From an uncultured Gammaproteobacteria bacterium (GTDB lineage Bacteria; Patescibacteriota; Microgenomatia; UBA10105; UBA927): 64,000 nucleotides of DNA. Positions 1 to 64,000 of this stretch are shown piece after piece (within the stretch, counting starts at the first letter, position 1; each line of letters begins with the position of its first letter). The position numbers and the translations under genes are program-made. The notes under the pieces were generated by a model. The model was given only the letters and a program-made list of their open reading frames with translations, was not told the DNA's origin and searched no databases. Location: contig CAYUKU010000006.1 of the NCBI GenBank assembly GCA_964445435.1, positions 1,112-65,111 on the forward strand. Direction: 5' to 3'.

Positions 1-886
1 CCGAAAGAAACAGAAGAAATATATACACCGTATTCTGCGAAAGAATATTGAAATAATACATCACGGACCTAGTCGAGAAGGTGTTTGCCATCTCTGCGAA
101 CCGATATTCCCGCACCCACGCAGCTCCGTTTTGCTGGTTTCTTGCGATATACGCGACAAATTCACCCCAATTAGGCAGGAAATACAATAATAAGGGCAAA
201 ACAAATGCCAATCCGAAAAAGAGCGCGAGCGTACGAATACGCTCTGCGCGTTTCCGTGAACGAGCAACTTGCCAAAAGGCCGTACTCACAATGGCAAGAA
301 GCGGTCCAGCCAGAAAAACGACTGCAATCCAACGGGTAAGGACTGCCAGAGCACAAAAAATTCCCGCCAAAACGGCATCCCGTCGTTTTCGAAGCGCATC
401 TGAACGCACGAGAAACACTGTCGACCAGATGATAAAAGTCGTGACAGCGGTTTCGGTGTATGTAAAGTGGGAGTAAAACAAAGCATTACCAAGACCCGCA
501 AACACGACAGCTGCGACGATTGCAGTCTTCTCGTCAAACGCCTGCCGTGCAAGCGCGTATGTTCCTGCAGCTGATCCTGCAAAAAATAGTCCGTTCAATA
601 AGAGCGCAACGGTATAGGTATATGAAGTACCCAAAACAAGCATTAGAAGCGCAATCAAGAGACTATAGACAGGCTGAAGATACCCCGTTGCCTCTAACAT
701 GTTTGCATATGTCGCGAGTGATGGAGATCTGAGGAGATCATGGTATTTGAGAGCCAATGACAGGTAATTGTGCTCGTCCCACTGAGGATATTGGCGACTT
801 TTCAACACATAGAGCGTATGCCCTATAACCAAGAGAATTACCAGAAGAAAGAGTGCATACCTGATAACCCGTGCGTTTGGCCTCAT
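1..886 (-). CDS. ArnT/PMT_2-like GT-C membrane glycosyltransferase, partial. The start is at 886 and the C-terminus runs past the window start. The ORF track misses it because there is no in-window stop.
   Basis: I translated the minus strand from the ATG at 886-884 and get an open frame of about 295 codons: MRPNARVIRYALFLLVILLVIGHTLYVLKSRQYPQWDEHNYLSLALKYHDLL...YALARQAFDEKTAIVAAVVFAGLGNALFYSHFTYTETAV... It has multiple TM helices, an acidic QWDEH loop motif, and an 'ARQAFDEKTA..SP..YS..TYTET' segment typical of PMT_2/ArnT-like proteins. Confidence 0.55.
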   Translation of the reverse strand, partial: MRPNARVIRYALFLLVILLVIGHTLYVLKSRQYPQWDEHNYLSLALKYHDLLRSPSLATYANMLEATGYLQPVYSLLIALLMLVLGTSYTYTVALLLNGLFFAGSAAGTYALARQAFDEKTAIVAAVVFAGLGNALFYSHFTYTETAVTTFIIWSTVFLVRSDALRKRRDAVLAGIFCALAVLTRWIAVVFLAGPLLAIVSTAFWQVARSRKRAERIRTLALFFGLAFVLPLLLYFLPNWGEFVAYIARNQQNGAAWVREYRFAEMANTFSTRSVMYYFNILSQNTVYIFLLFLS

Positions 887-912
887 AAATACGTTCCTGT
901 ATAATTGGGCAA
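887..912. promoter_or_regulatory. A 26-bp divergent intergenic region with a TATAAT box 8 nt upstream of the + gene ATG, implying a near-leaderless transcript.
   Basis: Sequence aaatacgttcctgtataattgggcaa ATG. It is the only non-coding space between the divergent genes 1..886(-) and 913..1929(+). Confidence 0.2.
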
Positions 913-1929
913 ATGAAACGGACTCGCCGCGCGTTGCCAAAAGTCAGCTTCATTATACCAACCTTAAACGCCCAGCACATCCTTCCCCGATGCCTCCAGG
1001 CTATCCGAAATCAAAGCTACCCTTACGAAAAAGTCGAAGTTATCGTCGCCGACGGAGGATCGAAAGACAAAACGGTCCAGATCGCAAAAAAATACGGCGC
1101 GATTGTTATCAATAATCCGGAGGTCCTCCACGAGCCGGGGAAATCGCGGGCTTCCCAAATCGCCTCAGGGGATATCATTTTTTATACTGATGCCGATAAC
1201 ATCCTTTCCCATGACCGATGGATTCAGCTTATGGTTTCCGCGTTTCAGAATGGTGAAAAGGTCACCGGCTTTCTCCCGCAGACAATTCCTGCTCCCGACA
1301 GTAACCCGATCGATCGTTATTTAGGATACTTATTCACCGATCCGTTCACCTGGTTTGTGTACTATCCGTCTGCAAGTCCGACGGACTTCAGCCTTACCTA
1401 TACACCAATAAAAGAAACCAAAGACTATGTACTGTATCGGTTTGAGACACATAATCCACCGCTTTTTGGCCTCTCTCAAGGGGTCGGAACGCTAAAAACG
1501 TTCAGCCGAACGGCAATTGCCCACGCGGATGACATGATGGCCGGTATCAAGTTAATACGTGAGGGCGGCATAGTTGCGTATGTACCAAACGCAGGCGTGT
1601 ATCACTATCATGTATCCGGACTTATAAATTTCCTCCATAAATACGCCTGGCGGCTCAGAAACAATTTCACGCAACAGGTCCGGGGGATGGGTCTTATACA
1701 TAGAACGAAATATTTCCCACTGATCCGGAAAGTAAGGATAGTATTTTTTATTCCATACGCGTTGTCCATAGTCGGCCCGCTCGTCCACAGCATCAAGCTT
1801 ACACTCAAACACCGGGATCCTGTTATGCTTCTTCATGTTCCGATGACTATGATTATGGCTCTTATCATTATCTGGGAAGGGGTACGTCATATCGCGGGTA
1901 TACGTACAAAACTCGGTGACTATGCGTAA
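913..1929 (+). CDS. GT2-family glycosyltransferase (GT-A fold) with a C-terminal membrane segment.
   Basis: VSFIIPTLNAQ...VEVIVADGGSKDKT...IIFYTDADNI (DxD motif), and a hydrophobic C-terminus. It is a paralog of 10400..11473. Confidence 0.75.
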   Translation: MKRTRRALPKVSFIIPTLNAQHILPRCLQAIRNQSYPYEKVEVIVADGGSKDKTVQIAKKYGAIVINNPEVLHEPGKSRASQIASGDIIFYTDADNILSHDRWIQLMVSAFQNGEKVTGFLPQTIPAPDSNPIDRYLGYLFTDPFTWFVYYPSASPTDFSLTYTPIKETKDYVLYRFETHNPPLFGLSQGVGTLKTFSRTAIAHADDMMAGIKLIREGGIVAYVPNAGVYHYHVSGLINFLHKYAWRLRNNFTQQVRGMGLIHRTKYFPLIRKVRIVFFIPYALSIVGPLVHSIKLTLKHRDPVMLLHVPMTMIMALIIIWEGVRHIAGIRTKLGDYA

Positions 1930-3076
1930 GAAACAGTCCATTCTCTATGTGAATTTCTCACCGTATGAAAACGCCGGGAATATCCTGGATTATCTCCTCG
2001 AAACATTTGATACTGTCGTACTTTTCTCTTTCCGCTTCCATACCCTGAAAGAAAATACAACATCAGATACCATAACCCTTTATAAGAAGGGGGAAGTCAT
2101 GTGGCAACGCCGCATGCTCGCGCCACCGGTGATTTCTTCCATGACCTTTTACCTTCTGCCCATCCGATCCTTTGTTATTCTCATACAGCTTTTCATATAC
2201 GCAGTTTGGCTACGAAGAGCGCTAGGAATGTTCGATATCTTTTTCACGGTCAATGCATACACGGCGTGGCTTGGCAATATACTTCGCTTCTTTGGAATTG
2301 TTCGGAAAACTATTTTTTGGGTCTGGGATTACTATCCTCCTGTTCACAAAGATCCTATCGTTCGAGTCATGCGATTTTTGTATTGGCAGTTTGATAAACC
2401 CGCAAGTCTGCATGCTGATAAGACCGTATTTCTCAACAAACGCCTCGCGGTCCTTCGAAACCGAATGGGTATACGCACCGCTTCCCAAACCACCCACATC
2501 ATACCCATAGGCACGAATCCCGTACATCGTTTACCTAAAACCGGTCAGACGCTGCGGCTGGTGTTTTTCGGGGTGCTCAAAACGAGTCAGGGACTTGATA
2601 GTGTTTTTGCGGCCTCGTCTCTCATTTACCGAAAGTATCCAAATGCCGAGCTTCATATCATCGGTGATGGGCCGGACAGGGAACGTTTTCAGACACTCGC
2701 TCACGGTTGTCCCATCAAAACTATTTTTTACGGGTACGTTCAGGCTGATCGTGACATACGAAAGATAATTTCTTCCTGCGATATTGGTCTTGCGCCTTAT
2801 ATGCCCGACATCAGCAATGTCTCCTATTACACTGATCCATCCAAAATAAAGACGTATCTTTCGCTTGGTGTCCCTACAATAATGACCGACTTTCTTACCT
2901 TCTCACAAGAGATTACTTCCTATCGCGCTGGAGTCGTCCTTAAAAACGTCTCGCCGAAATCACTTGTTGCTGCTATCAGTCAAATAGTATCAAAGAGAGA
3001 ATCCTTCAGGAGAAATGCGCTCTCCCTCGCGCGACGGTTTTCATACAAAAAGCTCTACCCCAAGCTTTTTTCGTAG
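1916..3076 (+). CDS. GT4-family (GT-B fold) glycosyltransferase.
   Basis: 386 aa. The C-terminal half has LVFFGVL...GLD...HIIGDGP...IGLAPY, typical of Glycos_transf_1. It overlaps the upstream gene by 14 nt. Confidence 0.65.
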   Translation: MTMRKKQSILYVNFSPYENAGNILDYLLETFDTVVLFSFRFHTLKENTTSDTITLYKKGEVMWQRRMLAPPVISSMTFYLLPIRSFVILIQLFIYAVWLRRALGMFDIFFTVNAYTAWLGNILRFFGIVRKTIFWVWDYYPPVHKDPIVRVMRFLYWQFDKPASLHADKTVFLNKRLAVLRNRMGIRTASQTTHIIPIGTNPVHRLPKTGQTLRLVFFGVLKTSQGLDSVFAASSLIYRKYPNAELHIIGDGPDRERFQTLAHGCPIKTIFYGYVQADRDIRKIISSCDIGLAPYMPDISNVSYYTDPSKIKTYLSLGVPTIMTDFLTFSQEITSYRAGVVLKNVSPKSLVAAISQIVSKRESFRRNALSLARRFSYKKLYPKLFS

Positions 3077-3095: not shown

Positions 3096-4073
3096 ATGAA
3101 ACAGAATCGTAAACTCCTTGTCGCAGTAACGGGCGCTTCAGGTTTCCTGGGAAGCCGCATGGTTCCTTTTTTGAAAGAGAAAGGTCATACAGTTCGCGCA
3201 ATCCTGCGCAAACACAACCCTCAAACGAAAGAATACTATTCACAGTCAGATAAAATCGTCTACGCTGACCTTTCAGACATGCAGGCGACCCGCCGCGCGC
3301 TTCGGGGTGCCCACTTCGTGTTTCATTTCGCAGCTGATATGGGCGGAGTCGGATATTTTTCCAAGGAGCAGTACGTTCCGTTCGTCACAAACATGCGCAT
3401 GGATCTCAATATCCTTGCTGCGTGCGAGCAAAACGGCGTAAAGCGTCTCTTTTACCCCTCCAGTGCGTGTGCGTATCCCACCGACGCGGCCACCCGCCTC
3501 AGGAAAATCCCAAAACTGGAGGAAACCATGTTTTTGCCCGCAAATCCCGATCAAATGTACGGATGGGAAAAGCTTACCATGCTGCTTTTATCCTCGCATG
3601 CACCGGTAGAAACACGCGTGGGAGTTCTCCATACGATTTTTGGTCCAGGACAGGAATGGTCAGGAGCACGAGCGAAATTTCCACCCGCCATAACATACAA
3701 GGTCATCCAGGCCGCGCGAACGAAATCACCCATCCGCATTTGGGGAGACGGCAAACAGCTCCGAACGTTTCTCTATATCTCGGATGCGCTTGAGAAAATC
3801 TATGAAGTCATGATGGCTAAAGACTACTGGGGCCCCGTGAATATATCCGGCGACCAGCAGGTGACGGTGAAAGAATGTGCAGACTGGCTCGCCAAACTCG
3901 CCGGCATTAAGCCGGTATATATATATGAAAAAGATAAACCAACCGGCGTGATGCTACGGGGAGTAAATAACGATAAGTATAAGAAGCACTACGCATATCG
4001 AAACAAGGTATCGACGAAGAAAGGGTTTTCGCTTCTGTATGAGTACATGCGCGAAAGAATAAAGGAACCTTAG
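3096..4073 (+). CDS. NAD-dependent epimerase/dehydratase (SDR), resembling GDP-mannose 3,5-epimerase (GME).
   Basis: A Rossmann motif VTGASGFLGS. FHFAADMGGVGYF, NGVKRLFYPSSACAYP, PDQMYGWEKL (a YxxxK active site) and HTIFGPGQEW...IWGDGKQLRTF match my memory of GME signatures (LAADMGGMGFI; RFFYASSACIYPE; DAYGLEKL; HNIYGP..W; WGDGLQTRSF). Confidence 0.55.
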   Translation: MKQNRKLLVAVTGASGFLGSRMVPFLKEKGHTVRAILRKHNPQTKEYYSQSDKIVYADLSDMQATRRALRGAHFVFHFAADMGGVGYFSKEQYVPFVTNMRMDLNILAACEQNGVKRLFYPSSACAYPTDAATRLRKIPKLEETMFLPANPDQMYGWEKLTMLLLSSHAPVETRVGVLHTIFGPGQEWSGARAKFPPAITYKVIQAARTKSPIRIWGDGKQLRTFLYISDALEKIYEVMMAKDYWGPVNISGDQQVTVKECADWLAKLAGIKPVYIYEKDKPTGVMLRGVNNDKYKKHYAYRNKVSTKKGFSLLYEYMRERIKEP

Positions 4074-5536
4074 GTTCGTGCTTCCGCTTCCTTTAGCATT
4101 TCTTCGACTTCTCTTCGGAACGGAAAATTTACTGGCATTTTCTTAAGCAGAAATTCAATATCTTCCCAGGAATTCTCCCGTTTCGCATTATTATACAAAT
4201 CGCGTGCTTTTACGAAGTTTCTGTAGTATTCGATATGATATCGGGCTTTCGTCAGTTTATTCCAAAACCGTGAACCCGCAAACGGCGGGTTAACTTGAGT
4301 TCTGTCATACAGACGATTTGCCGTCTCGTAATCCCCCCTCGCGAGTGCCGTTTCGATTGAAGCGACGATCTGGTCTTCTTTTGCCGAGGGGATCCAAAAC
4401 CCGATGAGTAGCGCCAATAACGCTGCGATGGAAACAACACTCAATTCCCTGACAGTAAGTTCCTTGAACCGCTTACCCCATAGAAGCCATCCCAAACCCA
4501 ACCCCAAGAAAACTATCTGCCAGGACAAACCAAACATTTGCCGATCCATCCGGATTCCTATAAAAGGCACATAGTAGTCGCCTCCGCTCATAACAAGCAG
4601 CATAAACAGGGTTTGCAGTACCACGAAAAACGAAAAAAATATGTTTGGGGATTGCGAAAGAAGCGGCAGTGTGAGAACGAAGTACTGTTCGGAAATCGCA
4701 GGCGAAAATAAAACCAGAATACATCCGTACCAGGCCGCCGATTGTGCCAGAGAAATCCTGCGGGCGAATACCCCCCCCAATGTAAGCGCCAAAACGAACA
4801 GAAACATTGGCGATACGTAACGGCTTAAAAAATCAGGTACGAAAACATGCCAGAACGGCGCGTTATTAAATGAGGTATATAAAAAAACGTTTTGTATAAT
4901 CCCGGCAAAGCCATCCCGCAAAAACGGAAGGAAACTCAGAAAAAATATTCCCGTAGGGAGACCTACTGTTACAAGTTTCCATTTCCACGTTTTTTCGCGT
5001 ATCGCAAGCCAAACCGGAAAAAAGAAAAAAATATGTTTGATGATAAGGGAAACACCAAGGAGCGCCAAGCCAGATATTTTCCTTTTTCGCGCAAGAAGCC
5101 ATACTGCCGTCAAACCTGCCAAAAGCGCAAGATTATCAAACTGGCTATAATAACCGGTCACGAGTATAGAAATCGGATTCAAGTAGTAGAGATATGCAGT
5201 GGTCCGGGAAAACAGTGAGGATAGAAGAAAAAACAATCCGATATCCACAAGCGCAAGAACTCCTGCGGTAAAATACCGTAACGCGAAAAACGGATCCGGA
5301 AAAAGGAGTGCTAACTTATAAAGAATCGCAAGGACATAAAACCAAAACGGTCCGTAGTTATATCGGGCGGTTTCTGCGTACACGTTTTTGTGTTCAAGAA
5401 TCGCCCGAGCAGCAATCTGGTATGATTCCATGTCATAGGTGAAACCTGCCGTTGCGGCCAGAAACCGAACCAAGACGCCAACACCCAAAAAAACAAAAAG
5501 CAGGGAAACGCGATACTTGTTAACGAATGCCTTCAT
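4070..5536 (-). CDS. Polytopic membrane protein, DUF2029/GT87-like GT-C glycosyltransferase, with a C-terminal soluble helical domain.
   Basis: 488 aa. The N-terminal TM helix is followed by the loop YDMESYQIAARAILEHKNVY...YNYGPFWFY. The same pattern, (Y/H)D..(..)A.R..L..KN(P)Y, occurs in 26702, 37965 and 60835. It has roughly 10 TM segments. The stop codon overlaps the convergent 3096..4073 gene. Confidence 0.45.
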   Translation of the reverse strand: MKAFVNKYRVSLLFVFLGVGVLVRFLAATAGFTYDMESYQIAARAILEHKNVYAETARYNYGPFWFYVLAILYKLALLFPDPFFALRYFTAGVLALVDIGLFFLLSSLFSRTTAYLYYLNPISILVTGYYSQFDNLALLAGLTAVWLLARKRKISGLALLGVSLIIKHIFFFFPVWLAIREKTWKWKLVTVGLPTGIFFLSFLPFLRDGFAGIIQNVFLYTSFNNAPFWHVFVPDFLSRYVSPMFLFVLALTLGGVFARRISLAQSAAWYGCILVLFSPAISEQYFVLTLPLLSQSPNIFFSFFVVLQTLFMLLVMSGGDYYVPFIGIRMDRQMFGLSWQIVFLGLGLGWLLWGKRFKELTVRELSVVSIAALLALLIGFWIPSAKEDQIVASIETALARGDYETANRLYDRTQVNPPFAGSRFWNKLTKARYHIEYYRNFVKARDLYNNAKRENSWEDIEFLLKKMPVNFPFRREVEEMLKEAEART

Positions 5537-7166
5537 GAACGAGTTTCTTTTCTCCCGATACGTACCGGAGTCGTATTACACGATCGCTCGGGATATCCGG
5601 GCGCTGTGCGAGAAACGCAGCGAGCGTTTTTTCGTCCCAAAAATATCCAAATCCTCCACCTCCCGCCTCTTTATAGCCTTGGGCGTTGATGTTCCACAGG
5701 AACATGGAAGCCAAAAGCTCTTTTGGTATCTTTCCGGTTTTATAAAACCACACCATGACGGTATAGCCCATCCCCTGCTGAAACGGAACTGAAAGATCAC
5801 CGATTCCGTAGTACCCCGGACTGTCTCCCGAAATGAGAAATATCGGATTATCAGGAAGCTTCGAAACTACGGCATCCATTTGACGAAGAAAGTTTTTCCG
5901 TTCATCTGCCAAAATCTTATCAAATTGTATCCCACGCCGAATATAGACAGCATTCTTATAAAGATACGCCGCGAACGACATCCAGATCAGTACGGCAAAA
6001 AGTACACCAAGCCATCTTCTTTGTATTTTTTGCAGGAGGACCATACATCCTGACAATAATCCGGCAACCAGAAATGCCGCACCGACTGCAGATAAGTAAT
6101 AATAACGGGACTCGAGAAACGCGCTTGCCGGACGGTCCAAAACGATAAACGGCAAAAAGCTTAGTAACACAAATACTATGCCGACGTGAAATTGCCGGCG
6201 AAGCGCTTTTTGCTTCAAGGAGACTGTCATGACAAAAACGAGTAACACAATCGAGGCGTACAGAGAAACGAGATCACCGACCAGAATAAGGCTGACTGCC
6301 TGTTTGAGGGGGTGAGCATCCAGAAATTCGTATGCCGTATGAGAAACGGATTGAGAGACGGGAAACAGAATTTCTTTCGGGATAAATACCTGGGAAATCC
6401 CAAGAACCGGATAGAAAAACGCGTGTACCAGCATCCGAGAACCCGTATCAGATCCTCGGGTCACATAGACGCCACCCTGCCCTTCTGCACCGTTGAGTCC
6501 CCACAATCGAACTGCGATCGCAAACACCAGAAACGCGACGACCGGCCAAAATTTCCTTGCAAGCTCGCGCAGTGACGCGCTGGTCTTTGTGAAATACAGA
6601 AACGGAAGAAATACAAACAGAAACAGGCTTGATTCTTTAAACAGGAAGGATATGTACACAAACACAAGCGACAATGTCAGATACAGCTCTTTTTTCTTTT
6701 CGGTATAAGAAATGATCGCGTGGAGCGACAGGAGCGCAAACAAGGCATTCGGAAGTGTTGTCGTGTTTGCTGAAATCCAGGAGACTGCCTGGCTTGGCGT
6801 TGAAGCAGCAGCAAAAAAAAGTGCACCTGCAAATGAGGCAAATGGCCGCCTCGTAAATCGATCCAGAAGTCGAAAAACCAGAAATGAATTTACCAGGTGC
6901 ACAAAAATCGCAAAAAGCGAAAAGGCATATACACGCAAGGGAAACAGAAAATGAAAAGCGTTGTTCAGCAGGCTTCCCGCAATGCGCTCTTTTCCGGTAA
7001 AAAGTTCCGGAAGCGAATACGAGCCAATGTTTCCCAAAAGACCGTTCACCTGAACGAATCCCAAACTCGCCCACTCGTCCTGCTGGAAGAACGTATCCCA
7101 CAGTCCCCAGTAGGCATAGAGAATAGCCGCAAGAAGAAAGACGATGATAAAAAAATTACGCTTCAT
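5520..7166 (-). CDS. GT-C-type membrane glycosyltransferase of the 'FFQQDEW' family (PMT/ArnT-like acidic loop).
   Basis: 548 aa with about 11 TM helices. WGLWDTFFQQDEWASLGFV lies in the first loop; compare the FDE.HFG motif of the PMT family. It has a C-terminal soluble domain and is a paralog of 11383..12966. Confidence 0.5.
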   Translation of the reverse strand: MKRNFFIIVFLLAAILYAYWGLWDTFFQQDEWASLGFVQVNGLLGNIGSYSLPELFTGKERIAGSLLNNAFHFLFPLRVYAFSLFAIFVHLVNSFLVFRLLDRFTRRPFASFAGALFFAAASTPSQAVSWISANTTTLPNALFALLSLHAIISYTEKKKELYLTLSLVFVYISFLFKESSLFLFVFLPFLYFTKTSASLRELARKFWPVVAFLVFAIAVRLWGLNGAEGQGGVYVTRGSDTGSRMLVHAFFYPVLGISQVFIPKEILFPVSQSVSHTAYEFLDAHPLKQAVSLILVGDLVSLYASIVLLVFVMTVSLKQKALRRQFHVGIVFVLLSFLPFIVLDRPASAFLESRYYYLSAVGAAFLVAGLLSGCMVLLQKIQRRWLGVLFAVLIWMSFAAYLYKNAVYIRRGIQFDKILADERKNFLRQMDAVVSKLPDNPIFLISGDSPGYYGIGDLSVPFQQGMGYTVMVWFYKTGKIPKELLASMFLWNINAQGYKEAGGGGFGYFWDEKTLAAFLAQRPDIPSDRVIRLRYVSGEKKLVHEGIR

Positions 7167-23388: not shown

Positions 23389-23393
23389 ATGTT

Positions 23394-56148: not shown

Positions 56149-57796
56149 ATTTTCTGCCCAAAAGAAAGAAAAGCCCCAAAACGGCTATAACGCTTATTAT
56201 ATTACCTAGCGTACGCACAGGGGTATCGGCAAAACGAATTTCAACGACATTCTGTCCCTTGGGAATCAAGATAGTCGGAAGAGATTGAGCGACTGTCGGC
56301 ACCACCGGTTTTCCGTTTACAAGATACTTCCACCCTGGAAAGACGGTTTTGTTGAGGGTTATCTTTTCGTCTTTATTCGTTGTGACGGTAAATCGTTCAT
56401 ATGTATCGCTTTGAACTATGTGCTCGACTATCATCCCTTCCCTGGGAACAATGGTCGTACGCGCATACGCGTCCGGGCTTGCCGGACGAACGAAATCGGG
56501 AGGTAAATATTCATATGAGATATTCGATACATCAAAGCGCAGCGCTTTTTCCGATTCGAATTCACGGGCTTCCTTTGTAAACAGATACTGCGGCTGAAAC
56601 CATTTGCCGTAATATGGAATCGCAAGAAGGACCACGATGGTGGTCAATATAAACCGCAACGCCTTCGCGCGCATATGAACGAAAAGCGTACCGATGAGCA
56701 CGCTTAGCCCGAGCTCAGCGTATGCCAGGAATCTCCAAGGATACTGAAGGTAAGAAAAAAACGGAATGTTTTCCCATAAAAATATGCTTATCGGAAGCGT
56801 AAAAAATATCCCAACTCCGGTGATAACCATTCCTGTCAGACCGAGATACCGTTCGGGAAAGAATCGTCCTTTGAGAAGAACCAATGCTCCTGCTGCAAGT
56901 CCAATAATGATATGGAGCTTACCCAGCATAAACGACATACCGTCTACACATCCTGCCGTAGAGCCCCCGAATCCCCAGGGTGAACTCCATAGTTGTGGTG
57001 CGCACACCAAATGATCATGAAAGTCAGAGGAGCTCGATATTTGTCCTGCCACATTTGTGTATTTCATCTCAACAAGAGCAGGAAGCCAAAAAAATGCAGA
57101 AAGCCCAAGTCCCAACACCAATATCAATATATAGTTTTTCAAGGGAGAAAGGGACTGCGCGCTCATCCGACGCACGAAAAACGTGATTACCGCTGCCATT
57201 GCCAGGAGGAAGCTTGTGGCGTACCCCAACAATGTATGGGAGAGAATAACCCCAGCAAGGCCGATTCCTCCGATAAGAAAACCGAGCTTATGCGGGTTTT
57301 TCTTATGTATGTCAACCAGAGACCACAAGAGTAACGGAAAAAAAACAAGTGTCCAGAGTTCGCCTACCGCTCCCCGTACGTACAGCTGCACGGCATGATA
57401 CGGTGCATAGGCATAAAAAATTCCTGCTATCAGCCCTCCAAGCACACCTATAAAAGGAACCAAGGCCACATAGAGTATACCCCCTGCAAGAATCATGCCC
57501 AAAATCATCATCACTTTGGTCGCTGACAGGCCAGAAGTGCCAAGGGCATAGAGAAACCCGCCCACATAATACGGGAGCGGGCCATAAAAATTATAGAGGG
57601 GATATCCGTACCCGTATCCCAGATCAGTTACCCAACGGACCGGAAACTGTCCACCCCGAAGAGCTTTACCCATGGAAACAACTCTGCCAATTTGCGTGTC
57701 ATCGTGCATTGGGAAATATCCGTCGCCCAAAAGCGGTGACACAGTCCCCAGTGAAACCATGAGAACCAGCAGAAATCCGATTATTTTACCTGTCAT
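56129..57796 (-). CDS. PTPS-related-family polytopic membrane protein (putative GT-C) with a YfhO-type C-terminal domain.
   Basis: FPMHDDTQIGRVVSMGKALRGGQFPVRWVTDLGYGYGYPLYNFYGPLPYY...; C-terminus TVFPGWKYLVNGKPVVP...GQNVVEIRF, then a TM helix. It is in tandem with 57793..59328. Confidence 0.55.
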   Translation of the reverse strand: MTGKIIGFLLVLMVSLGTVSPLLGDGYFPMHDDTQIGRVVSMGKALRGGQFPVRWVTDLGYGYGYPLYNFYGPLPYYVGGFLYALGTSGLSATKVMMILGMILAGGILYVALVPFIGVLGGLIAGIFYAYAPYHAVQLYVRGAVGELWTLVFFPLLLWSLVDIHKKNPHKLGFLIGGIGLAGVILSHTLLGYATSFLLAMAAVITFFVRRMSAQSLSPLKNYILILVLGLGLSAFFWLPALVEMKYTNVAGQISSSSDFHDHLVCAPQLWSSPWGFGGSTAGCVDGMSFMLGKLHIIIGLAAGALVLLKGRFFPERYLGLTGMVITGVGIFFTLPISIFLWENIPFFSYLQYPWRFLAYAELGLSVLIGTLFVHMRAKALRFILTTIVVLLAIPYYGKWFQPQYLFTKEAREFESEKALRFDVSNISYEYLPPDFVRPASPDAYARTTIVPREGMIVEHIVQSDTYERFTVTTNKDEKITLNKTVFPGWKYLVNGKPVVPTVAQSLPTILIPKGQNVVEIRFADTPVRTLGNIISVIAVLGLFFLLGRKYEKTNT

Positions 57797-59328
57797 AGGG
57801 CTTTGAGTTTCTTTTTCCCTGTTTTCCTGATGAGCTGAAAAAGAAAAAGTAACAAGAAAAACAGGCTCACACTGTCTGCGATAAACCGAAATACCGTCTC
57901 ACGAAAACCCGCCACGATTCTATGTTCGCCTTTCGGCACTTCTATGCGCATCACCCCAAGGGGGTTTGCGTGATCAACAGGTGTCAGTTTTCCGTCGAGC
58001 GTTACTCCCCAGCCGGGATAATATGCCGTATTGATTTGCACGACACTGTCTTCTGACGCCGTCACTGTGACGTCGATATATTGCGTCGTTACTCTATTCT
58101 CTGTAATGGTTCCACCTCCCGAATGGAATTCAAGTTTTTCATTCGCCCGCGCCGTCGGCTTCTGGGTCACCCATATTGGAAGGTATTCGTCGTGGACGGT
58201 TGTTGTTGCTTCATTCGTCGTATAGTACCCTTCCGGAAATGACTCATAGGCGATAAATCTGCTTGCCATAGCAAACTGTAGCGCACATGCGATCATCAGT
58301 ACGCCACCAAAAACGTATTGTCGCTTCGCATTGGCATGAACGGCACACGCAACAAGGAAGCTCCCGGCAAACACGCTCATACTCAAAAACCGAAACGGAA
58401 ACTGAAAAAGCGTCGCAAGAACATCGAAGCGCCATATAAACGCGCTCACGGGCAGCGCCATGCACGTTGCGCCAACAAAAATCCAGAAAAAGAGAGATCG
58501 AATCGAGTGTCTCTGTTGGGAAAAGACGCTCACGATGGCTGCAAAAAGACCCGGAATTCCGACAAGCCACCAAAGACTGCGCTCAAACAAATACTGCCTG
58601 GGATCAGAAACTACGATACGATCAAACACAACGAACCTTCGCTCATAAAGCGCCGGCAACCAAAAAAACGCAGCCATCCCCATAGCGAACGTAAGGGGCC
58701 ACAAGTACCGCGAGAATTTCCGAAGCGCAATAATATAGAGCATATTCGTGCCGATAAATAGAACGGCAAGCGAATTATGGCTCAGAATTAACATAAATGC
58801 GGAAATCATAAAAAGCCATTTCTTATCGCGGGCGATCGAATAGAATGAAAGCGCCGCCCAAAGAAACGCAAATATCTCTCCCACCGAGCCGCGCTTATAT
58901 ATATCAAAAAGCAAATACGGCGCGGCAAGGAAGCTTATTGCGCCCATCGTGGCAGCAAATGAATGAAAATAGGTCTGAAGCCACAGTCTTACGACTACCC
59001 CGGCCCCCACTACGGAAAGAATAATAATCAGCTTTACGGAATCGACGAACGAAAAACCCAGGAATTTGAAAATCGATCCGACGTACATAAACCCCGGGTA
59101 AAGGAAGTTCGCCACCGGATACCCGTAGCTGTAATTGAGTCTCCCCAAAAATCGGACCGGGAACTGCCCCTCACGCAGACTCTGGTAAAACGCACTCAAC
59201 CGAACGATCATCCAGCTTCCGTCGTCCGTCAGGATAAATCCCGGCCGAAAAAGCGGGAAAAGCACAATAAGACCGACTAGAATGACAACGCCAAACGGCC
59301 ATAATTTTTGGAAGAGGGGCGACTTCAT
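57793..59328 (-). CDS. PTPS-related-family polytopic membrane protein (putative GT-C) with a YfhO-type C-terminal domain.
   Basis: FILTDDGSWMIVRLSAFYQSLREGQFPVRFLGRLNYSYGYPVANFLYPGF...; C-terminus AYYPGWGVTLDGKLTPVD...GEHRIVAGF, then a TM helix. It has an ATGA overlap with 56129..57796. Confidence 0.55.
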   Translation of the reverse strand: MKSPLFQKLWPFGVVILVGLIVLFPLFRPGFILTDDGSWMIVRLSAFYQSLREGQFPVRFLGRLNYSYGYPVANFLYPGFMYVGSIFKFLGFSFVDSVKLIIILSVVGAGVVVRLWLQTYFHSFAATMGAISFLAAPYLLFDIYKRGSVGEIFAFLWAALSFYSIARDKKWLFMISAFMLILSHNSLAVLFIGTNMLYIIALRKFSRYLWPLTFAMGMAAFFWLPALYERRFVVFDRIVVSDPRQYLFERSLWWLVGIPGLFAAIVSVFSQQRHSIRSLFFWIFVGATCMALPVSAFIWRFDVLATLFQFPFRFLSMSVFAGSFLVACAVHANAKRQYVFGGVLMIACALQFAMASRFIAYESFPEGYYTTNEATTTVHDEYLPIWVTQKPTARANEKLEFHSGGGTITENRVTTQYIDVTVTASEDSVVQINTAYYPGWGVTLDGKLTPVDHANPLGVMRIEVPKGEHRIVAGFRETVFRFIADSVSLFFLLLFLFQLIRKTGKKKLKAL

Positions 59329-60821
59329 AGAGGCGTAATTTTATACATCCGCATCCACACATCCTCCCTGTTTCCTTTCTGGTAACTTGAAACCAATTCC
59401 ATTGGCCAGTCGGGAATCGTCTGCGTCTGATTGAAAACGATATATGTTGTATGATCTTTTGCGTCTTTGAGCATTTCTTGGGTAGGTGCGTCATAGGGCA
59501 CCGGCCACACTCCCTTCACTTTTACGTTCGGGTTGTCCACCTGGTACATTTCTATCGCGTACGGGAACAGTCCGAAGGTGCCCTCCGTATAGATACTCAC
59601 TTTTCCTTTTTGTGCTTCTTTTGTCACGATTTCGTTAATCTCTTTGACTCCCCAACCGCTCGGCCAATCGTCGATGAGTTGGCTCTTATCCGAAAACGGT
59701 ATCGGGGCATATTTCGGATTTGTCAGAATGAAATAATCAGTCCACAGGGAGGGGAAAACGATAAGGCCGAACAAAAAAATCGTCAGGGCGTTCTTTCTTC
59801 GTATGAGATCCGTCAGCGTTCGGGCCGCAAGGATAAGAAGAGGCATAACCATAAAGAGAATAAAACGAGGATAGAGAACTCTGCCAAACATCGAAAGCGC
59901 AAAAAACGGTGCAAACCACCAAACGAAAAGGAGCAGAGACTCCCGCCACTTCCCCCCGAAACGGAATAGTCCGATAATCGACGCGACAAACACGGGCCAC
60001 GTCAGATAATGAATTGCCCAGTCAAACAAACCTCTCAAGTTACCCGATACGAACTTGAACGGATGGACGACCCACTCGTGAAATGAATAGATAAATACCA
60101 TATCTTTCTGAGCGACCATGTGGAAAAGCGGTGAGAGCCGAAGCGTGGCATACATTGCCTGCGAGATAAACGCAGCCACGAGCACGAACCCGGTCCACCG
60201 AAAAAAATTCCTATTTCTCTTCGGGTTTTTCCAGTCAAAAAGAAGAAGCGTCGCAGGCAACATGTAGAGACTTAAGAAGCCCGAGGATTTATTGAGCATT
60301 CCTGCTCCCAGTACCATCCCCAAAATAAGGGCGATATCAAGCCGCAGGTTTCGTACAAGAAGAACGGAAAGGAATGCACTCCAGATGAAGAACGTAGCCA
60401 CAAGCGAATCATAGACGGCAAGACGATCATACATGAGCGTAAAGGGTACGATAAGATAAAGAACACATGTGAGAAAGCTTATTTTTTTCCTCTGGAACAG
60501 TTCGAAACTCAAAAACCACAAGCCAACCATGCTCACGGCTCCGGCTATAACGGAAACGAGTCGGCCGGCAACCAGAGGATCACGGATAAATTTCAAAAAG
60601 ACCATCATAACCCACGTAAACATGGGTTGTTTTCCGTCTACCAGAGAAATAAACCGCCACGCCGCATCCCGCGAGCCTATTTGCGACCAACGGATATAGA
60701 TAGCCTCATCTGTGAATATGGGTAAAATCGTCAAATGGAACAGCCTCGTGGCGAAAAAAGCCGCGGTCAATAAGAGCAAGGCAAACACGAACGTACGCAC
60801 GCTGGCAAGCTTACGAGCCAT
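59325..60821 (-). CDS. ArnT/PMT_2-like GT-C membrane glycosyltransferase (classic DEA.Y motif).
   Basis: I moved the start to MARKLASVRTFVFALLLL. ...ILPIFTDEAIYIRWSQ... (an ArnT-type DExxY motif), with about 12 TM helices and a C-terminal soluble domain. Confidence 0.6.
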   Translation of the reverse strand: MARKLASVRTFVFALLLLTAAFFATRLFHLTILPIFTDEAIYIRWSQIGSRDAAWRFISLVDGKQPMFTWVMMVFLKFIRDPLVAGRLVSVIAGAVSMVGLWFLSFELFQRKKISFLTCVLYLIVPFTLMYDRLAVYDSLVATFFIWSAFLSVLLVRNLRLDIALILGMVLGAGMLNKSSGFLSLYMLPATLLLFDWKNPKRNRNFFRWTGFVLVAAFISQAMYATLRLSPLFHMVAQKDMVFIYSFHEWVVHPFKFVSGNLRGLFDWAIHYLTWPVFVASIIGLFRFGGKWRESLLLFVWWFAPFFALSMFGRVLYPRFILFMVMPLLILAARTLTDLIRRKNALTIFLFGLIVFPSLWTDYFILTNPKYAPIPFSDKSQLIDDWPSGWGVKEINEIVTKEAQKGKVSIYTEGTFGLFPYAIEMYQVDNPNVKVKGVWPVPYDAPTQEMLKDAKDHTTYIVFNQTQTIPDWPMELVSSYQKGNREDVWMRMYKITPL

Positions 60822-60834
60822 AGGGAAATTATAC

Positions 60835-61935
60835 CTACTTTTTGGCCAGAAGAACAATTCCTGCCAGACCAAGAGGTACAATCATCCCCCAAAACTTGAT
60901 AAGGGGAACAGGGTCATTCCAATGACCGAAATAGAAATACGGCGCATAGATAAGAAGAAGCCCGAGTGAAGCAGCGCCAGTGACGAGGGTAATCCGCCGG
61001 TTTCGAGGTAAAAGTCCGACAAAAGGCACGATCCATACCAAATACCAGGGAAGAATCTCACGCTGAGTGATAACGGCAAGAAGACCCATGCACATGGCAA
61101 TGAGAAACCACAGTGGTCTGTACCCGAACAGCACAACCGGGAGCGCGAATAATGTCATTAATTTCGTACCTGTCGCCAGAGCCATCAGGGCAAACGATTG
61201 GAGCGTCTGGCCCGAAACAGAAGCCCAAATGGACCATACCGCAAACAGCATCATGACGATATCGTTATGTCCGCTCACCAGCGTCTCAAAAATGATAAGC
61301 GGGTTTAATGCCACAATAGCCATGCCCACGTTTATCTGTTTCGGGTCAGTTTTCGCCAAAATTTTTTGCGTCAGCCAAACAACCCCAAGATATGAAAAAA
61401 CCGCAATTCCCTTCATGCTCCATAATGTGGGAAGAAAATATCCCAACCCCAGCAAGTAAAACGGAAGACTGAGAATAATCCAAAACGGCGTGTACGCGCT
61501 TGGCAAATGAGTCCAACGCATAAAAGAAAGCCACGGCTCTACGCCGCGAAAGTCAAGCGGGACGACCGTATACGGATTCTTGTGGTACACGAGCACTGTT
61601 TTGGCCGTGAACATGTAGTTAAAAATGTCGTAAGAAAACGCCGGATAGGAAAAAAGGAGGAGGACTGATAGGATGATTGCGATGCGCCAAACGGTTTCTT
61701 GCGCAAGTCTACCTTTCCGTGCCTGAGAAATGGCAAACGCATACAAACTGAAATAAACGATAAGTAGTCCAACATACCATGCCGTGGCCCACGGTCGAGC
61801 ATAGAACCCTACATACTGAAACAGTTTCTCGATGGATTGGAGGATTCCGACCTGTGAAATCGTTAAACTAAGATCAACCTGAGTAAACGAAAAGAGAAAC
61901 AATAAAACCGCAGCTGCACTATAGGCGAAAATCAT
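60835..61935 (-). CDS. DUF2029/GT87-like polytopic membrane protein (putative GT-C), a paralog of 26702..27871.
   Basis: SYPAFSYDIFNYMFTAKTVLVYHKNPYTVVP...LNPLIIFETLVSGHNDIVMM. Confidence 0.45.
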   Translation of the reverse strand: MIFAYSAAAVLLFLFSFTQVDLSLTISQVGILQSIEKLFQYVGFYARPWATAWYVGLLIVYFSLYAFAISQARKGRLAQETVWRIAIILSVLLLFSYPAFSYDIFNYMFTAKTVLVYHKNPYTVVPLDFRGVEPWLSFMRWTHLPSAYTPFWIILSLPFYLLGLGYFLPTLWSMKGIAVFSYLGVVWLTQKILAKTDPKQINVGMAIVALNPLIIFETLVSGHNDIVMMLFAVWSIWASVSGQTLQSFALMALATGTKLMTLFALPVVLFGYRPLWFLIAMCMGLLAVITQREILPWYLVWIVPFVGLLPRNRRITLVTGAASLGLLLIYAPYFYFGHWNDPVPLIKFWGMIVPLGLAGIVLLAKK

Positions 61936-62696
61936 GAATAATATCCTTTAAACGCGTTGACCCGGATCCTTACGATATCCAAGAATCCCTGCCACGAATC
62001 TTTTATGGGATTCACCCTTCTTGTTTCCACATAGTGCCATTCGACCGGCACCTCTTTTATCTTATATCCGCGATTCTTCGCCAGAAATATCACTTCTATG
62101 TCAAATCCTGCCGTTACCATGGATCCGCTTACTTCCTTTTTCGTGCCGTAGAGCTTAAGACTTTTGAAAATATTCTCGGCTGCGTTTTTACGAAATGCCT
62201 TAAATCCGCACTGGGTGTCTACGATACCCTTCAGTCCCAAGAGCGTACTTCGCAAAAACATAAATCCCCGCGCCATCATGATGCGAAAGACCGGCGCGCC
62301 TTCCCGGACGCCGTTTCTTGACCCGATGACCACGTCATATCCCTTGGAGAACCACGGCAGAAGCTTCTCTACCTCCCGGATCGGCGTTGCTTGATCCAGA
62401 TCGGTAAACAACACAATGTCTCCCCGTGAAGCCGCGACTCCCGTGGCGACGGTTCCCGCTTTCCCCAAATGGATATTGTGAATCACTCGAAATCCCCGAT
62501 TGTTTTTCACGAATTCGTCCAGGAGTATTTTTGTCTTGTCTGATGATCCGTCGTTTACGATAATCGCTTCCCAGGTATATGACTGTCGCTCCAAGTAGAG
62601 CGAAACCTTGTCGAGGGCTCCAAGCCGAATATTCGTCTCTTCGTTATACGCGGGGATGATAACCGACAAAAAAGGCATACGTATCTTACTCTTCAT
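61932..62696 (-). CDS. GT2 polyprenyl-phosphate glycosyltransferase (Dpm1-like, soluble).
   Basis: MPFLSVIIPAYNEETNI...EAIIVNDGSSDKT...GKAGTV..G...DIVLFTDLDQATP...GSRN...QCGFKAF. Confidence 0.75.
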   Translation of the reverse strand: MKSKIRMPFLSVIIPAYNEETNIRLGALDKVSLYLERQSYTWEAIIVNDGSSDKTKILLDEFVKNNRGFRVIHNIHLGKAGTVATGVAASRGDIVLFTDLDQATPIREVEKLLPWFSKGYDVVIGSRNGVREGAPVFRIMMARGFMFLRSTLLGLKGIVDTQCGFKAFRKNAAENIFKSLKLYGTKKEVSGSMVTAGFDIEVIFLAKNRGYKIKEVPVEWHYVETRRVNPIKDSWQGFLDIVRIRVNAFKGYYS

Positions 62697-64000
62697 ACGG
62701 GACGAGTTTATAGATTTTCACGAAGGGCGCGTCCCACGTTCCTGCGATTTGCGCCCTGCCGAATCCAGCCACCTCCCACAGTGGATGGCCAAGCGGCTGA
62801 CAATTTATTGTCTCACAAATTACGATAAGTTGCTTCGTAACGCTTTTGCGGGCGGGATCAATATCGGTATTTTCAATGACAACCGGCGCATTTCCCCATA
62901 TCTCAAAAAAGTACCGATACGCGTGATCGGAATTTCCGTCTGTGAGAAGTGCGAAGTTAAATGGCTCTCCGTTCGTCTGCTCAAACGCCGTACGGGCGAT
63001 TGTCTTTACCTGTTCCAACTGGTTATTTGGAGGGTAGACGAAAGGACGACCCTGCCAATTAAAGATAATAAGCCCGGCCCATAGCAGAATCACGGGCAGG
63101 CGTGCGTTTTTGTTACTCCACACCCATTGGGCCATCATCCCGAGAAACAGGAAGGGGAATGCAAACAGAATGGTGAAATAGTAATCGTAGATGGCTCGCT
63201 GGTAAAACCCAAAAAGCCCAATGACGATGCCCACCCACACACAAAGAAGCAGTATTTCTTTTTTTCGCGTCCGGGCAATGATCACAAATCCGAGAAAGAA
63301 CGCCAATACCCATCGGGCAGTCTGCGACAAGACCGTCAAGGCTGTGATGTACCAGTCAGGATAACTATTCCACAATTCTTTGGGCGGCATCCGGAAAACC
63401 ACTCTGCTAAAAATCCGAAACGACACGTCAGCGATCGTTTTCCCGTAAGAAGACGGTGTAAATCCCGTTTCTTTACCCGCGGAAAGAAACTGTACGATGG
63501 TACGTGTATTTGCAAACTGGTGTCGCAACTCAAACGCGATAAACGGACTTGCCCCGATAAGAAATCCTACTGCAGTCAAAAGCATCGTCTTTACAAACGG
63601 AAGTGTATGTCGGTGAAGGAGATACCATACAAACACAACCACGAATAAAAAGAGGAAAAGATAGTGAAGCTGTATACCGATTCCCAACACGATACCGATA
63701 AGAAGCTCGTTGGCGCGAATTCTCCTTGTGACCAACCGCCACAGAAGGTAGATAAGCATTATCGCGAAAAACGGCACGACGTTCGGATTCCACGATGACC
63801 GGGAATACGCGATAACGAGCGGGGAAAAGGCATACAGACTCGCTGCCACAAGACCCGCTACCGTACCAAATAAGGATCGTCCGGTTACGTACACCATAAA
63901 CACGGTAGCAATACCGAACAAGCCGACCATGACCGCAGGTCCCACGGGATCGAGTTTCCACGCCCACAGAAACGGCAGCATGAAATAATAGTAAATAGGC
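62686..64000 (-). CDS. ArnT/PMT_2-like GT-C membrane glycosyltransferase, partial. The N-terminus lies beyond the window end.
   Basis: The frame stays open upstream of the track's M at 63981 (...PIYYYFMLPFLW). ...SLFGTVAGLVAASLYAFSPLVIAYSRSSWNPNVVPFFAIMLIYLLWRL... matches the PMT_2 core. The acidic loop-1 motif is presumably in the missing N-terminus. Confidence 0.5.
   Translation of the reverse strand, partial: PIYYYFMLPFLWAWKLDPVGPAVMVGLFGIATVFMVYVTGRSLFGTVAGLVAASLYAFSPLVIAYSRSSWNPNVVPFFAIMLIYLLWRLVTRRIRANELLIGIVLGIGIQLHYLFLFLFVVVFVWYLLHRHTLPFVKTMLLTAVGFLIGASPFIAFELRHQFANTRTIVQFLSAGKETGFTPSSYGKTIADVSFRIFSRVVFRMPPKELWNSYPDWYITALTVLSQTARWVLAFFLGFVIIARTRKKEILLLCVWVGIVIGLFGFYQRAIYDYYFTILFAFPFLFLGMMAQWVWSNKNARLPVILLWAGLIIFNWQGRPFVYPPNNQLEQVKTIARTAFEQTNGEPFNFALLTDGNSDHAYRYFFEIWGNAPVVIENTDIDPARKSVTKQLIVICETINCQPLGHPLWEVAGFGRAQIAGTWDAPFVKIYKLVPYEE

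Follow-up and report, generated by a model that had tools for sequence, protein, structure and literature searches.

What would a bacterium build with two dozen membrane-embedded glycosyltransferases encoded side by side? The question is raised by a 64,000-nucleotide stretch of contig CAYUKU010000006.1 (assembly GCA_964445435.1, positions 1,112 to 65,111 of the forward strand), deposited as an uncultured Gammaproteobacteria bacterium and placed by GTDB in the Patescibacteriota (Microgenomatia; UBA10105; UBA927). This whole stretch is called the window here. We propose that it is the core of a glycan-assembly cluster conserved in the ultra-small Candidatus Gottesmanbacteria, and that the cluster would serve as a fixed assembly line rather than as a variable decoration system, a reading to which we give a probability of about 0.6. 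Collinear one-to-one orthologues in related genomes, ancient paralogues and the lack of repeats, insertion sequences (IS) or composition breaks fit a fixed multi-step pathway better than variable decoration.

Gene Content of the Window

The open reading frame (ORF) listing, with about 50 long ORFs and one small gene added, gives 51 genes that cover 99.7% of the window and leave almost no intergenic space. Pfam scans of every ORF, together with the gene map, assign 24 polytopic proteins resembling glycosyltransferases of the GT-C fold, 13 family 2 glycosyltransferases (GT2), four of family 4 (GT4) and two Polysacc_synt-type (Wzx/MOP) flippases. A first-pass annotation made from the sequence had given exactly these counts and had described nearly every gene as a glycosyltransferase or a nucleotide-sugar enzyme, which the scans bear out. 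The nucleotide-sugar enzymes number six: three SDR epimerase/dehydratases, two DegT aminotransferases and one GNAT acetyltransferase. The GT-C genes (g00, g04, g05, g10, g11, g15, g21, g22, g25, g26, g28-g34, g36, g38, g44-g47 and g49) occupy 39,053 of the 64,000 bases (61%), a density that is, to our knowledge, far above that of ordinary bacteria; we know of no denser GT-C locus. The genes are as follows (coordinates, strand, assignment and its basis).

1..886 (-): g00, PMT_2 GT-C cut by the window; Pfam PMT_2 35.9 bits; loop-1 motif QWDEHN
913..1929 (+): g01, GT2 with two C-terminal transmembrane (TM) helices; GtrB-like architecture, sequence matches generic GT2
1916..3076 (+): g02, GT4 (Glycos_transf_1); Pfam
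3096..4073 (+): g03, NAD-dependent sugar epimerase/dehydratase; Pfam
4070..5536 (-): g04, GT-C of GT-C_B type (ALG3/ALG6/PimE/GPI-MT-I-like); AF2 model and Foldseek, no Pfam match
5520..7166 (-): g05, GT-C; PMT_2 23.9 bits against a cut-off of 26.1; g10 paralogue; FFQQDEW after TM1
7156..8181 (-): g06, GT2; Pfam
8178..9491 (-): g07, DegT/DnrJ/EryC1 sugar aminotransferase; Pfam 276.7 bits
9498..10484 (-): g08, sugar 4,6-dehydratase/epimerase (SDR); Pfam
10400..11473 (-): g09, GT2 with two weak C-terminal hydrophobic helices; true start probably ~20 codons downstream (orthologues 335-338 aa)
11383..12966 (-): g10, GT-C of 527 aa; g05 paralogue; FFQQDEW motif
12963..13298 (-): g10a, membrane protein of 111 aa with 3-4 TM helices; no known family
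13291..16275 (-): g11, AftD-like GT-C of 994 aa with a large extracytoplasmic domain and a terminal TM helix; homologues with PF11847; GHDSG after TM1
16244..16879 (+): g12, GNAT N-acetyltransferase; Pfam
16857..18029 (+): g13, DegT sugar aminotransferase; Pfam 281.5 bits
18034..18927 (-): g14, GT2; Pfam
18934..20250 (-): g15, PMT_2 GT-C; Pfam 58.4 bits; TFDEYA motif
20253..21362 (-): g16, GT4; Pfam
21363..22202 (-): g17, GT2, candidate polyprenyl-phosphate sugar synthase; best NCBIfam match PpgS, below the curated cut-off
22147..23451 (-): g18, MOP-family (Wzx-like) flippase; Pfam Polysacc_synt 41.4 bits
23394..24080 (-): g19, GT2 of 228 aa without TM helix, Dpm1/ArnC/AglJ-like candidate synthase; NCBIfam AglJ 109 bits
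24046..25116 (-): g20, GT4; Pfam
25141..26739 (-): g21, PTPS_related-like GT-C; 28-30% full-length identity to g25, g32, g44 and g45; THDGE motif
26702..27871 (-): g22, GT87/MptA_B-type GT-C; g47 paralogue; L052 orthologue matches PF26314 (MptA_B_family)
27868..28395 (-): g23, N-terminally anchored protein of 175 aa; weakly DUF5667-like (24.8 bits, below cut-off); kept in L048 and L052
28399..29172 (-): g24, GT2; Pfam
29133..30770 (-): g25, PTPS_related GT-C of GT-C_A type; C-terminal beta-sandwich and terminal TM helix
30767..32422 (-): g26, PMT-like GT-C; paralogue of g29, g30 and g34; L052 orthologue PMT_2; SMDEAS motif
32419..33492 (-): g27, sugar epimerase/dehydratase; Pfam
33473..34861 (-): g28, PMT_2 GT-C; true start probably ~34705 (~410 aa; L052 orthologue 408 aa); loop-1 motif TWDQVS
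34710..36368 (-): g29, PMT_2 GT-C; Pfam and paralogy; DWDEVA motif
36365..37990 (-): g30, PMT/PMT_2 GT-C; Pfam; SWDEVS motif
37965..39227 (-): g31, GT87-like GT-C; GT87 23.1 bits against a cut-off of 25; aligns with g47 and g22; kept in L052
39275..40894 (+): g32, PTPS_related GT-C; Pfam
40738..43245 (+): g33, YfhO GT-C; Pfam 80.2 bits; true start probably ~40891
43238..44923 (+): g34, PMT/PMT_2 GT-C; Pfam; YQDETA motif
44917..45828 (-): g35, GT2; Pfam
45825..48104 (-): g36, YfhO GT-C; Pfam 85.9 bits
48074..49165 (-): g37, GT4; Pfam
49110..51488 (-): g38, YfhO GT-C; Pfam 68.2 bits
51403..52179 (-): g39, GT2; Pfam
52167..53162 (-): g40, GT2; Pfam
53081..53980 (-): g41, GT2; Pfam
53984..55462 (-): g42, MOP-family (Wzx-like) flippase; Pfam Polysacc_synt_3 179.5 bits
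55417..56148 (-): g43, GT2, candidate polyprenyl-phosphate sugar synthase; PgfS, dolichyl-P hexose transferase, AglJ and ArnC, below curated cut-offs
56129..57796 (-): g44, PTPS_related GT-C; Pfam 26.5 bits against a cut-off of 26.4; paralogy
57793..59328 (-): g45, PTPS_related-like GT-C; paralogy
59325..60881 (-): g46, PMT_2 GT-C; Pfam 51.7 bits; FTDEAI motif
60835..61935 (-): g47, GT87 GT-C; Pfam 29.1 bits against a cut-off of 25
61932..62696 (-): g48, GT2, GtrB/DPMS/ArnC-like candidate polyprenyl-phosphate sugar synthase; NCBIfam and PDB matches
62686..64000 (-): g49, PMT_2 GT-C cut by the window; Pfam

The GC content is even along the window at 45-49%, and the window holds no tRNA gene, no Rfam match, no nucleotide repeat longer than 75 nt and no IS element or composition break that we could see. 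Recent duplication or mobile DNA was considered as the source of the paralogues and rejected, as repeats, RNA genes and mobile elements are all lacking in the window.

Several gene ends needed attention. The window start cuts g00 to the first 294 residues of a PMT_2 protein whose full length of 520 aa is seen in the L046 orthologue (the prefix L marks loci in other genomes), and the window end, which reads ...PIYYYFM in the g49 frame up to base 64000, removes from g49 about 75 N-terminal residues that in orthologues hold TM1 and the motif FLGDEGRD. For g10 the start was corrected to ~12966, which gives 527 aa and agrees with the gene call in L046, a strain with 96-98% identity, and the longest-ORF starts of g09, g28, g33 and g38 are probably too far upstream, judging from orthologue lengths. 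At the divergent gene pairs (886-913, 16244-16313 and 39227-39275) the gaps measure only ~30-50 nt, which leaves no room for promoters that overlap neither coding sequence nor one another; a scan for the sigma-70 consensus gave no enrichment, and a promoter and terminator scan of 38-46 kb was uninformative.

Conservation and Borders of the Cluster

The same gene order is found across relatives of the window, which makes the cluster a trait of the lineage rather than a peculiarity of this stretch. A scan with g49, using one genome per GTDB species, returned 41 orthologous loci at 46-76% identity, all in metagenome-assembled genomes (MAGs) of Ca. Gottesmanbacteria or the 'Patescibacteria group', together with one distant Daviesbacteria locus. 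Three of the contigs are ~1.0 Mb long, namely labelled chromosomes of 995 and 1,088 kb (closed) and a 1,020-kb scaffold. In 25 loci the genes g49-g48-g47-g46-g45-g44-g43-g42-g41 keep their order, and most of the shorter runs break off where a contig ends; the median identity of orthologues is 47-70%, against 25-33% between paralogues in the window. From the other end, loci located through homologues of g11, g04 and g25 show g00 to g32 collinear as well, with Pfam annotation that agrees gene by gene; identity to the window is 96-98% in a strain (L046), 54-71% in one relative (L043 and L052) and 44-68% in another (L045 and L047).

About 18 third-party MAGs titled 'uncultured Gammaproteobacteria bacterium' (e.g. 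CAZKLT010000003.1 and CAZQTD010000002.1) also carry the Gottesmanbacteria-type cluster, at 46-76% identity; such a title is evidently either a placeholder or wrong, and the window itself comes from a Ca. Gottesmanbacteria genome.

As the two truncated genes had already led the first-pass annotation to state, the locus runs past both ends of the window, and the matching DNA of relatives holds further cluster genes on either side. Past g49, in the closest relative (L001), come a GT2-GtrA_DPMS_TM fusion, a UXS-like SDR, UDP-glucose dehydrogenase (Ugd), RmlD, RmlB, RmlC and RmlA, after which an unrelated CAP-domain gene marks the cluster border. Beyond g00 relatives carry an S-adenosylmethionine methyltransferase, another AftD-like protein, of 949 aa and with 27% identity to g11, and a polytopic protein with a weak GT-C_AftD match; on this side the DNA examined ends before the cluster does. 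Taking the window and the relatives' flanks together, we estimate the cluster at no less than ~77 kb, with at least 26 GT-Cs, so that it takes up 7% or more of a chromosome of 1.0-1.09 Mb. The contig from which the window is taken measures 80,144 bp. Look-ups of exact protein matches gave none for g01, g04, g48 and g49, the last being truncated by the window end, and placed the identical g25 protein only on a 4.1-kb Logan contig. The first-pass annotation had allowed that such a density would be unremarkable if ordinary in the lineage; it is ordinary within the lineage, as the collinear relatives show, and it is the lineage as a whole that is unusual.

The Membrane Proteins Are GT-Cs of at Least Six Families

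GT-C enzymes are defined as polytopic proteins with about 7-13 TM helices (PMC11127046), and a hydropathy scan finds 5-12 TM segments in all 24 candidates, none of which looks like a transporter. Fifteen of the 24 score above Pfam gathering cut-offs: g00, g15, g28, g29, g30, g34, g46 and g49 with PMT_2 or PMT (g30 and g34 also match the PMT family PF02366), g25, g32 and g44 with PTPS_related, g33, g36 and g38 with YfhO, and g47 with GT87. Matches of g05 (PMT_2) and g31 (GT87) fall below the cut-off, and the seven candidates that have no Pfam match of their own are all tied to GT-C by paralogy, by the Pfam match of an orthologue or by structure. An all-against-all BLAST within the window groups the proteins into paralogue families with full-length identities of 25-33%: PTPS-like (g21, g25, g32, g44, g45), YfhO (g33, g36, g38), PMT-like (g26, g29, g30, g34), GT87-like (g22 and g47, with g31 added by alignment) and the pair g05 and g10. 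The families thus number at least six, where 'at least five' had first been counted: PMT/PMT_2, PTPS_related, YfhO, GT87/MptA_B, AftD-like and a DUF2079-like type of class GT-C_B. We know of no characterized member of the PTPS_related, DUF2079-like (g04) and g05 families.

The AftD-like assignment of g11, which itself has no Pfam match, is suggested by its 117 homologues, many of which carry PF11847 (GT-C_AftD) and some of which NCBI labels as alpha-(1->3)-arabinofuranosyltransferase family; in L047 a paralogue neighbouring the g11-type gene matches PF11847 weakly. For g22 a role as Wzy polymerase was considered and rejected in favour of GT87/MptA_B, given its paralogy to g47 and the PF26314 match of its L052 orthologue.

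NCBIfam has no match for g04, g05, g10, g11, g22, g23 or g45, and sequence searches of the PDB, made with g04 and with profiles of the PTPS-like, g05/g10 and GT87 proteins, turned up no meaningful match, so that structure prediction was needed. The protein g04, with no match in Pfam, NCBIfam or the PDB sequence search and with homologues that bear the labels DUF2079 or DUF2029 in their source records, was modelled by AlphaFold from a 34-sequence alignment, with a predicted local distance difference test (pLDDT) score of 92.2. All 23 of the 23 top Foldseek matches of this model in the PDB are GT-Cs, among them GPI mannosyltransferase I, ALG3, ALG6, ArnT, PimE, STT3, Pmt and AftA. The g25 model (pLDDT 88), like that of g04 a helical bundle, has only GT-C structures among its top fold-search matches and resembles the STT3/PMT class. 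A fusion found in nature joins the two types of enzyme: the Lentisphaeria g04 homologue P0157 (648 aa) carries a GT2 domain, of GT-A type, together with the g04 GT-C family.

An acidic residue lies just after TM1 in 23 of the 24 GT-Cs, that of g49 being seen in orthologues only. The motif is DE in the PMT-like and g05 families, HD or DD in the PTPS-like family and g11, YDIFNY in GT87 and DQ in g28; g04 has an invariant Asp35, and within families the Asp is invariant. The sole exception is the YfhO protein g38, with Ser-Thr after TM1 in place of the Gly-Asp or Ala-Asp of its paralogues g33 and g36, and this protein may be catalytically inactive or use another residue.

A common C-terminal module, detectable by BLAST between families, occurs in g21, g25, g32, g44, g45, g33, g36, g38, g11 and the L047 protein at 16972-19821. 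In this module a beta-sandwich bearing an FPGW motif comes first and a single terminal TM helix after it; glycoside hydrolases have beta-sandwich domains that match it in the g25 model. The resemblance of these beta-sandwich and large extracytoplasmic domains to the carbohydrate-binding modules (CBMs) of Emb and AftD proteins favours a glycan as acceptor. A DUF5667-like domain, which stands alone in g23, is fused to AftD-like homologues elsewhere (PF18915 in P0008, P0026, P0033, P0040, P0077 and P0082).

Donor Synthases and Flippases

Four of the GT2 enzymes, g17, g19, g43 and g48, resemble Dpm1/GtrB-type synthases, the same number that had been proposed at first. NCBIfam gives PpgS, AglJ, ArnC, PgfS and dolichyl-phosphate hexose transferase as their best matches, and the closest solved relatives, across the whole catalytic domain, are Pyrococcus DPMS, ArnC and GtrB: the best PDB matches of g19 are DPMS (5mlz, 6e-18) and ArnC, and those of g48 are GtrB (5ekp, 7e-13), DPMS and ArnC. 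Two more GT2s, g01, which matches generic enzymes such as chondroitin synthase, and g09, have two C-terminal hydrophobic helices like GtrB and ArnC, and by this architecture they may be further polyprenyl-phosphate sugar synthases. The complement of nine GT2s besides the four candidates (g01 and g09 among the nine), four GT4s and two Wzx-like proteins points to a lipid-linked oligosaccharide that is also built in the cytoplasm. The MOP proteins g18 and g42 may flip diphosphate-linked oligosaccharides and might also move monophosphate-linked donors, by analogy with the MATE-family flippase proposed for this role in GT136 systems (PMC11127046).

A Small Membrane Protein Next to the AftD-like Gene

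Directly downstream of the AftD-like GT-C gene, in seven of seven loci, lies a gene for a protein of 91-136 aa with 3-4 TM helices and a conserved LPY(F/L/I)NL motif, called g10a in the window:

12963-13298 (-): the window
12961-13290: L043
2299-2574: L046
3778-4116: L047
8486-8884: L049
13411-13797: L050
13350-13760: L051

The protein g10a has no Pfam family, and 22 representatives were found at E <= 0.001 among 1.84 billion sequences. Its identification as a GtrA-type flippase was rejected (no Pfam match; hhalign probability 0.1%), and it may be a new accessory subunit or a flippase that partners AftD-like enzymes. The pairing of the two genes is repeated in L049-L051, three distant loci at ~30% identity that came from a scan of metagenomes with the second AftD-like protein and are not an orthologous left border. 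In these Microgenomates-like contigs from JGI metagenomes the AftD-like gene is surrounded by a different cluster, among whose products are a hexapeptide acyltransferase and a polytopic protein of ~990 aa that ends in a GDSL esterase domain; the two genes suggest that the glycan of that cluster is O-acylated.

Weighing the Explanations

The first-pass annotation had likened the locus to the Gtr and CsbB-GtcA-YfhO schemes. The likeness holds as far as Dpm1/GtrB/ArnC-like GT2s, MOP flippases and GT-Cs are all present, a set in keeping with glycosylation outside the membrane from polyprenyl-phosphate sugars, and the donor-flip-transfer chemistry has support at the level of protein families; it fails in the lack of GtrA from the window and understates the nine other GT2s, four GT4s and two Wzx-like proteins. 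The scheme was further said to be 'multiplied combinatorially' and 'highly diversified', and in this form it amounts to a distinct explanation, in which many independent Gtr-like or CsbB-GtcA-YfhO-like modules would decorate a pre-formed polymer and so generate antigen or phage-receptor diversity. Donor-synthase-like GT2s do adjoin GT-Cs (g48 between g49 and g47, g43 beside g44 and g45), the unit of GT2-GtrA, g49, g48 and g47 stands alone in L020, and the presence or absence of g10 together with the L030 and L039 rearrangements indicates some modular turnover. Against this, dozens of Gottesmanbacteria species hold the same genes as one-to-one orthologues in the same order at 44-76% identity, which does not support the claim of combinatorial diversity; the paralogues are ancient at 25-33% identity, phase-variation tracts are as absent from the window as repeats, mobile elements and composition shifts, and 4-7 donor synthases for 24 GT-Cs do not fit independent three-gene modules. 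We therefore consider combinatorial decoration distinctly improbable. A far smaller chance still, close to negligible, attaches to an artefact of density through chimeric metagenome assembly or the over-calling of hydrophobic ORFs as GT-C: the source is a MAG and seven of the 24 GT-Cs lack their own Pfam match, yet the GC content is uniform, each of those seven is linked to GT-C by other evidence, and the recurrence of the order in independent assemblies from many samples, closed chromosomes included, excludes an assembly artefact.

Actinobacterial Pmt is a model for another explanation, that the cluster serves mainly protein O-glycosylation, with PMT/PMT_2 enzymes glycosylating S-layer, pilin or secreted proteins and the other GT-Cs extending the glycan. 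Eleven of the 24 GT-Cs are PMT/PMT_2-like, most of them with DE in loop 1 and two (g30 and g34) matching PF02366, and in another lineage of the candidate phyla radiation (CPR) pilin glycosylation has been proposed, not shown (PMC11623550). PMT_2 is equally the family of ArnT and of lipid- and glycan-modifying enzymes, however, and no gene for an acceptor protein was found by Pfam in the window or in the flanks of relatives. The CBM-like beta-sandwich domains suggest glycan acceptors instead, and the characterized relatives of YfhO, AftD-like and GT87/MptA_B proteins act on teichoic acids and lipoglycans (in part, PMC5836110 and PMC8035078). We regard protein O-glycosylation as the main function as unlikely; the PMT-like members may carry it out alongside the assembly of a glycan.

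The assembly-line reading has its own difficulties. Its main gap is the missing genes for initiation, polymerization, ligation and the acceptor: an initiating phosphoglycosyltransferase, a Wzy polymerase, an LCP ligase and an acceptor gene were not found in the window or in ~12 kb of flanks in relatives. Chain-length regulator Pfam families were likewise not found in the window or the relatives' flanks, and could lie elsewhere in the genome. The four synthase candidates fall below the curated NCBIfam cut-offs and are soluble (228-279 aa), without the C-terminal TM helices of GtrB and ArnC, and GtrA_DPMS_TM is absent by Pfam from all window proteins; the GT2-GtrA_DPMS_TM fusion that adjoins g49 in relatives lies just outside. 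The collinear runs seen in relatives cover g00-g32 and g41-g49. In addition, g10 (31% identical to g05) is present in the window and L046 and absent from the same position in L043, L045 and L047, and is a lineage-specific gain or loss in an otherwise fixed cluster. The locus L020 (MFJV01000001.1, 767326-788606, on a ~1.02 Mb contig) keeps at this site only rml/ugd, GT2-GtrA, g49, g48 and g47, which may be a minimal core module, and L030 and L039 are rearranged yet GT-C-rich. This reduction and these rearrangements imply that the full set is not obligatory and that some modules may work independently.

Proposed Pathway and Its Significance

In the assembly line that we propose, the donors, the acceptor, the order of steps and the product are as we infer them from families, folds, motifs, gene order and conservation. 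Nucleotide-sugar enzymes, namely the three SDRs, two DegT proteins and the GNAT of the window and RmlABCD, Ugd and the UXS-like enzyme just outside it in relatives, would supply rhamnose, uronic or pentose sugars and N-acetylated amino-deoxy sugars. Nine ordinary GT2s and four GT4s would then build one or more polyprenyl-diphosphate-linked oligosaccharides at the cytoplasmic face, to be exported by the two MOP/Wzx-like flippases. The enzymes g17, g19, g43 and g48, possibly joined by g01, g09 and the neighbouring GT2-GtrA fusion, would load single sugars onto polyprenyl phosphate, and these donors would be flipped in turn. Outside the membrane at least 24 GT-Cs of at least six families would each add a defined residue or linkage, and a polymer of the envelope, a lipid anchor or surface proteins would finally carry the glycan.

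All the parts are of known kinds; what is new is the scale, the contiguity, the setting in a reduced CPR genome, the mix of families and the small protein beside AftD. A search of the open-access literature on glycosyltransferases of Gottesmanbacteria, Microgenomates and Patescibacteria/CPR found no description of the cluster. A wider proposal, which we advance tentatively and would not call probable, is that with at least 26 GT-Cs and at least 7% of a ~1 Mb genome these bacteria build a complex glycan almost wholly outside the membrane, by an independently arisen counterpart of the pathways of the lumen of the endoplasmic reticulum (ER) and of mycobacteria, one that employs uncharacterized GT-C families and a new AftD partner. 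If so, the glycan would probably hold a central place in the episymbiotic way of life, serving, for instance, protection or attachment to a host. CPR bacteria have shed most biosynthetic pathways, and that an entire lineage should spend 7% or more of its genome here would mark this glycan as key to how these uncultured episymbionts live. A compact set of uncharacterized GT-Cs beside likely donor synthases and sugar pathways should also aid the assignment of function to PTPS_related, DUF2079-like and orphan GT-Cs, and the cluster may be useful for glycoengineering.

Comparison with Known Systems

The segment g04-g09 recalls the Arn operon for modification of lipid A with 4-amino-4-deoxy-L-arabinose (L-Ara4N) in combining DegT, an SDR dehydratase, GT2s and PMT_2-like GT-Cs (cf. 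ArnB, ArnC and ArnT). Unlike in that operon, Pfam found no ArnA formyltransferase/decarboxylase, ArnD deformylase or SMR-type ArnE/F pair, and CPR bacteria are not known to us to make lipid A. With the Wzx/Wzy pathway the cluster shares the flippases g18 (Polysacc_synt) and g42 (Polysacc_synt_3), and it differs in the families for initiation, polymerization and chain-length control missing from the window and the relatives' flanks.

The three-component systems GtrA/GtrB/Gtr*, CsbB/GtcA/YfhO and GT136 pentofuranose transfer (PMC11127046, PMC5836110, PMC8035078) follow the same logic of synthase, flippase and GT-C, and the cluster has three YfhO homologues, GtrB-like GT2s, flippases of the MOP/MATE superfamily and, in relatives, the GT2-GtrA protein beside g49. 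It departs from them in having 24 GT-Cs for 4-7 candidate synthases and no stand-alone GtrA in the window, in being conserved as a whole set rather than serotype- or phage-variable, and in the 13 cytoplasmic GT2/GT4 enzymes and full sugar-nucleotide pathways encoded alongside.

The assembly of arabinogalactan, lipoarabinomannan and lipomannan in mycobacteria and corynebacteria (EmbA/B/C, AftA-D, MptA/B/C, PimE, Pmt, Ppm1, Rv3789) also relies on serial extracytoplasmic GT-Cs fed with GT2-made polyprenyl-phosphate donors, and the cluster has AftD-like and GT87/MptA_B-like members, a soluble catalytic domain in its candidate donor synthases as in Ppm1 and CBM-like domains on some GT-Cs. In contrast, the window lacks the UbiA-type DPPRS and DprE1/DprE2 families by Pfam, contains PTPS_related, YfhO and many PMT_2 proteins and comes from the unrelated CPR lineage. 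Mycobacteria have roughly 15-20 GT-Cs scattered over 4.4 Mb, whereas here they form one contiguous cluster in a ~1 Mb genome.

The lumen of the eukaryotic ER (ALG3/9/12/6/8/10, STT3, PMT1-6, PIG-M/V/B/Z, DPY19) offers a similar number of GT-Cs from both structural classes, the g04 model lying near the ALG3/ALG6/GPI-MT-I class and the g25 model near the STT3/PMT class. The cluster differs in being bacterial, in its clustered genes, in having no STT3/PglB family match and in the identity of only 8-20% to those structures. In the ER, GT-Cs act in sequence from dolichyl-phosphate mannose and dolichyl-phosphate glucose after a lipid-linked oligosaccharide has been flipped, a process that the proposed assembly line would resemble.

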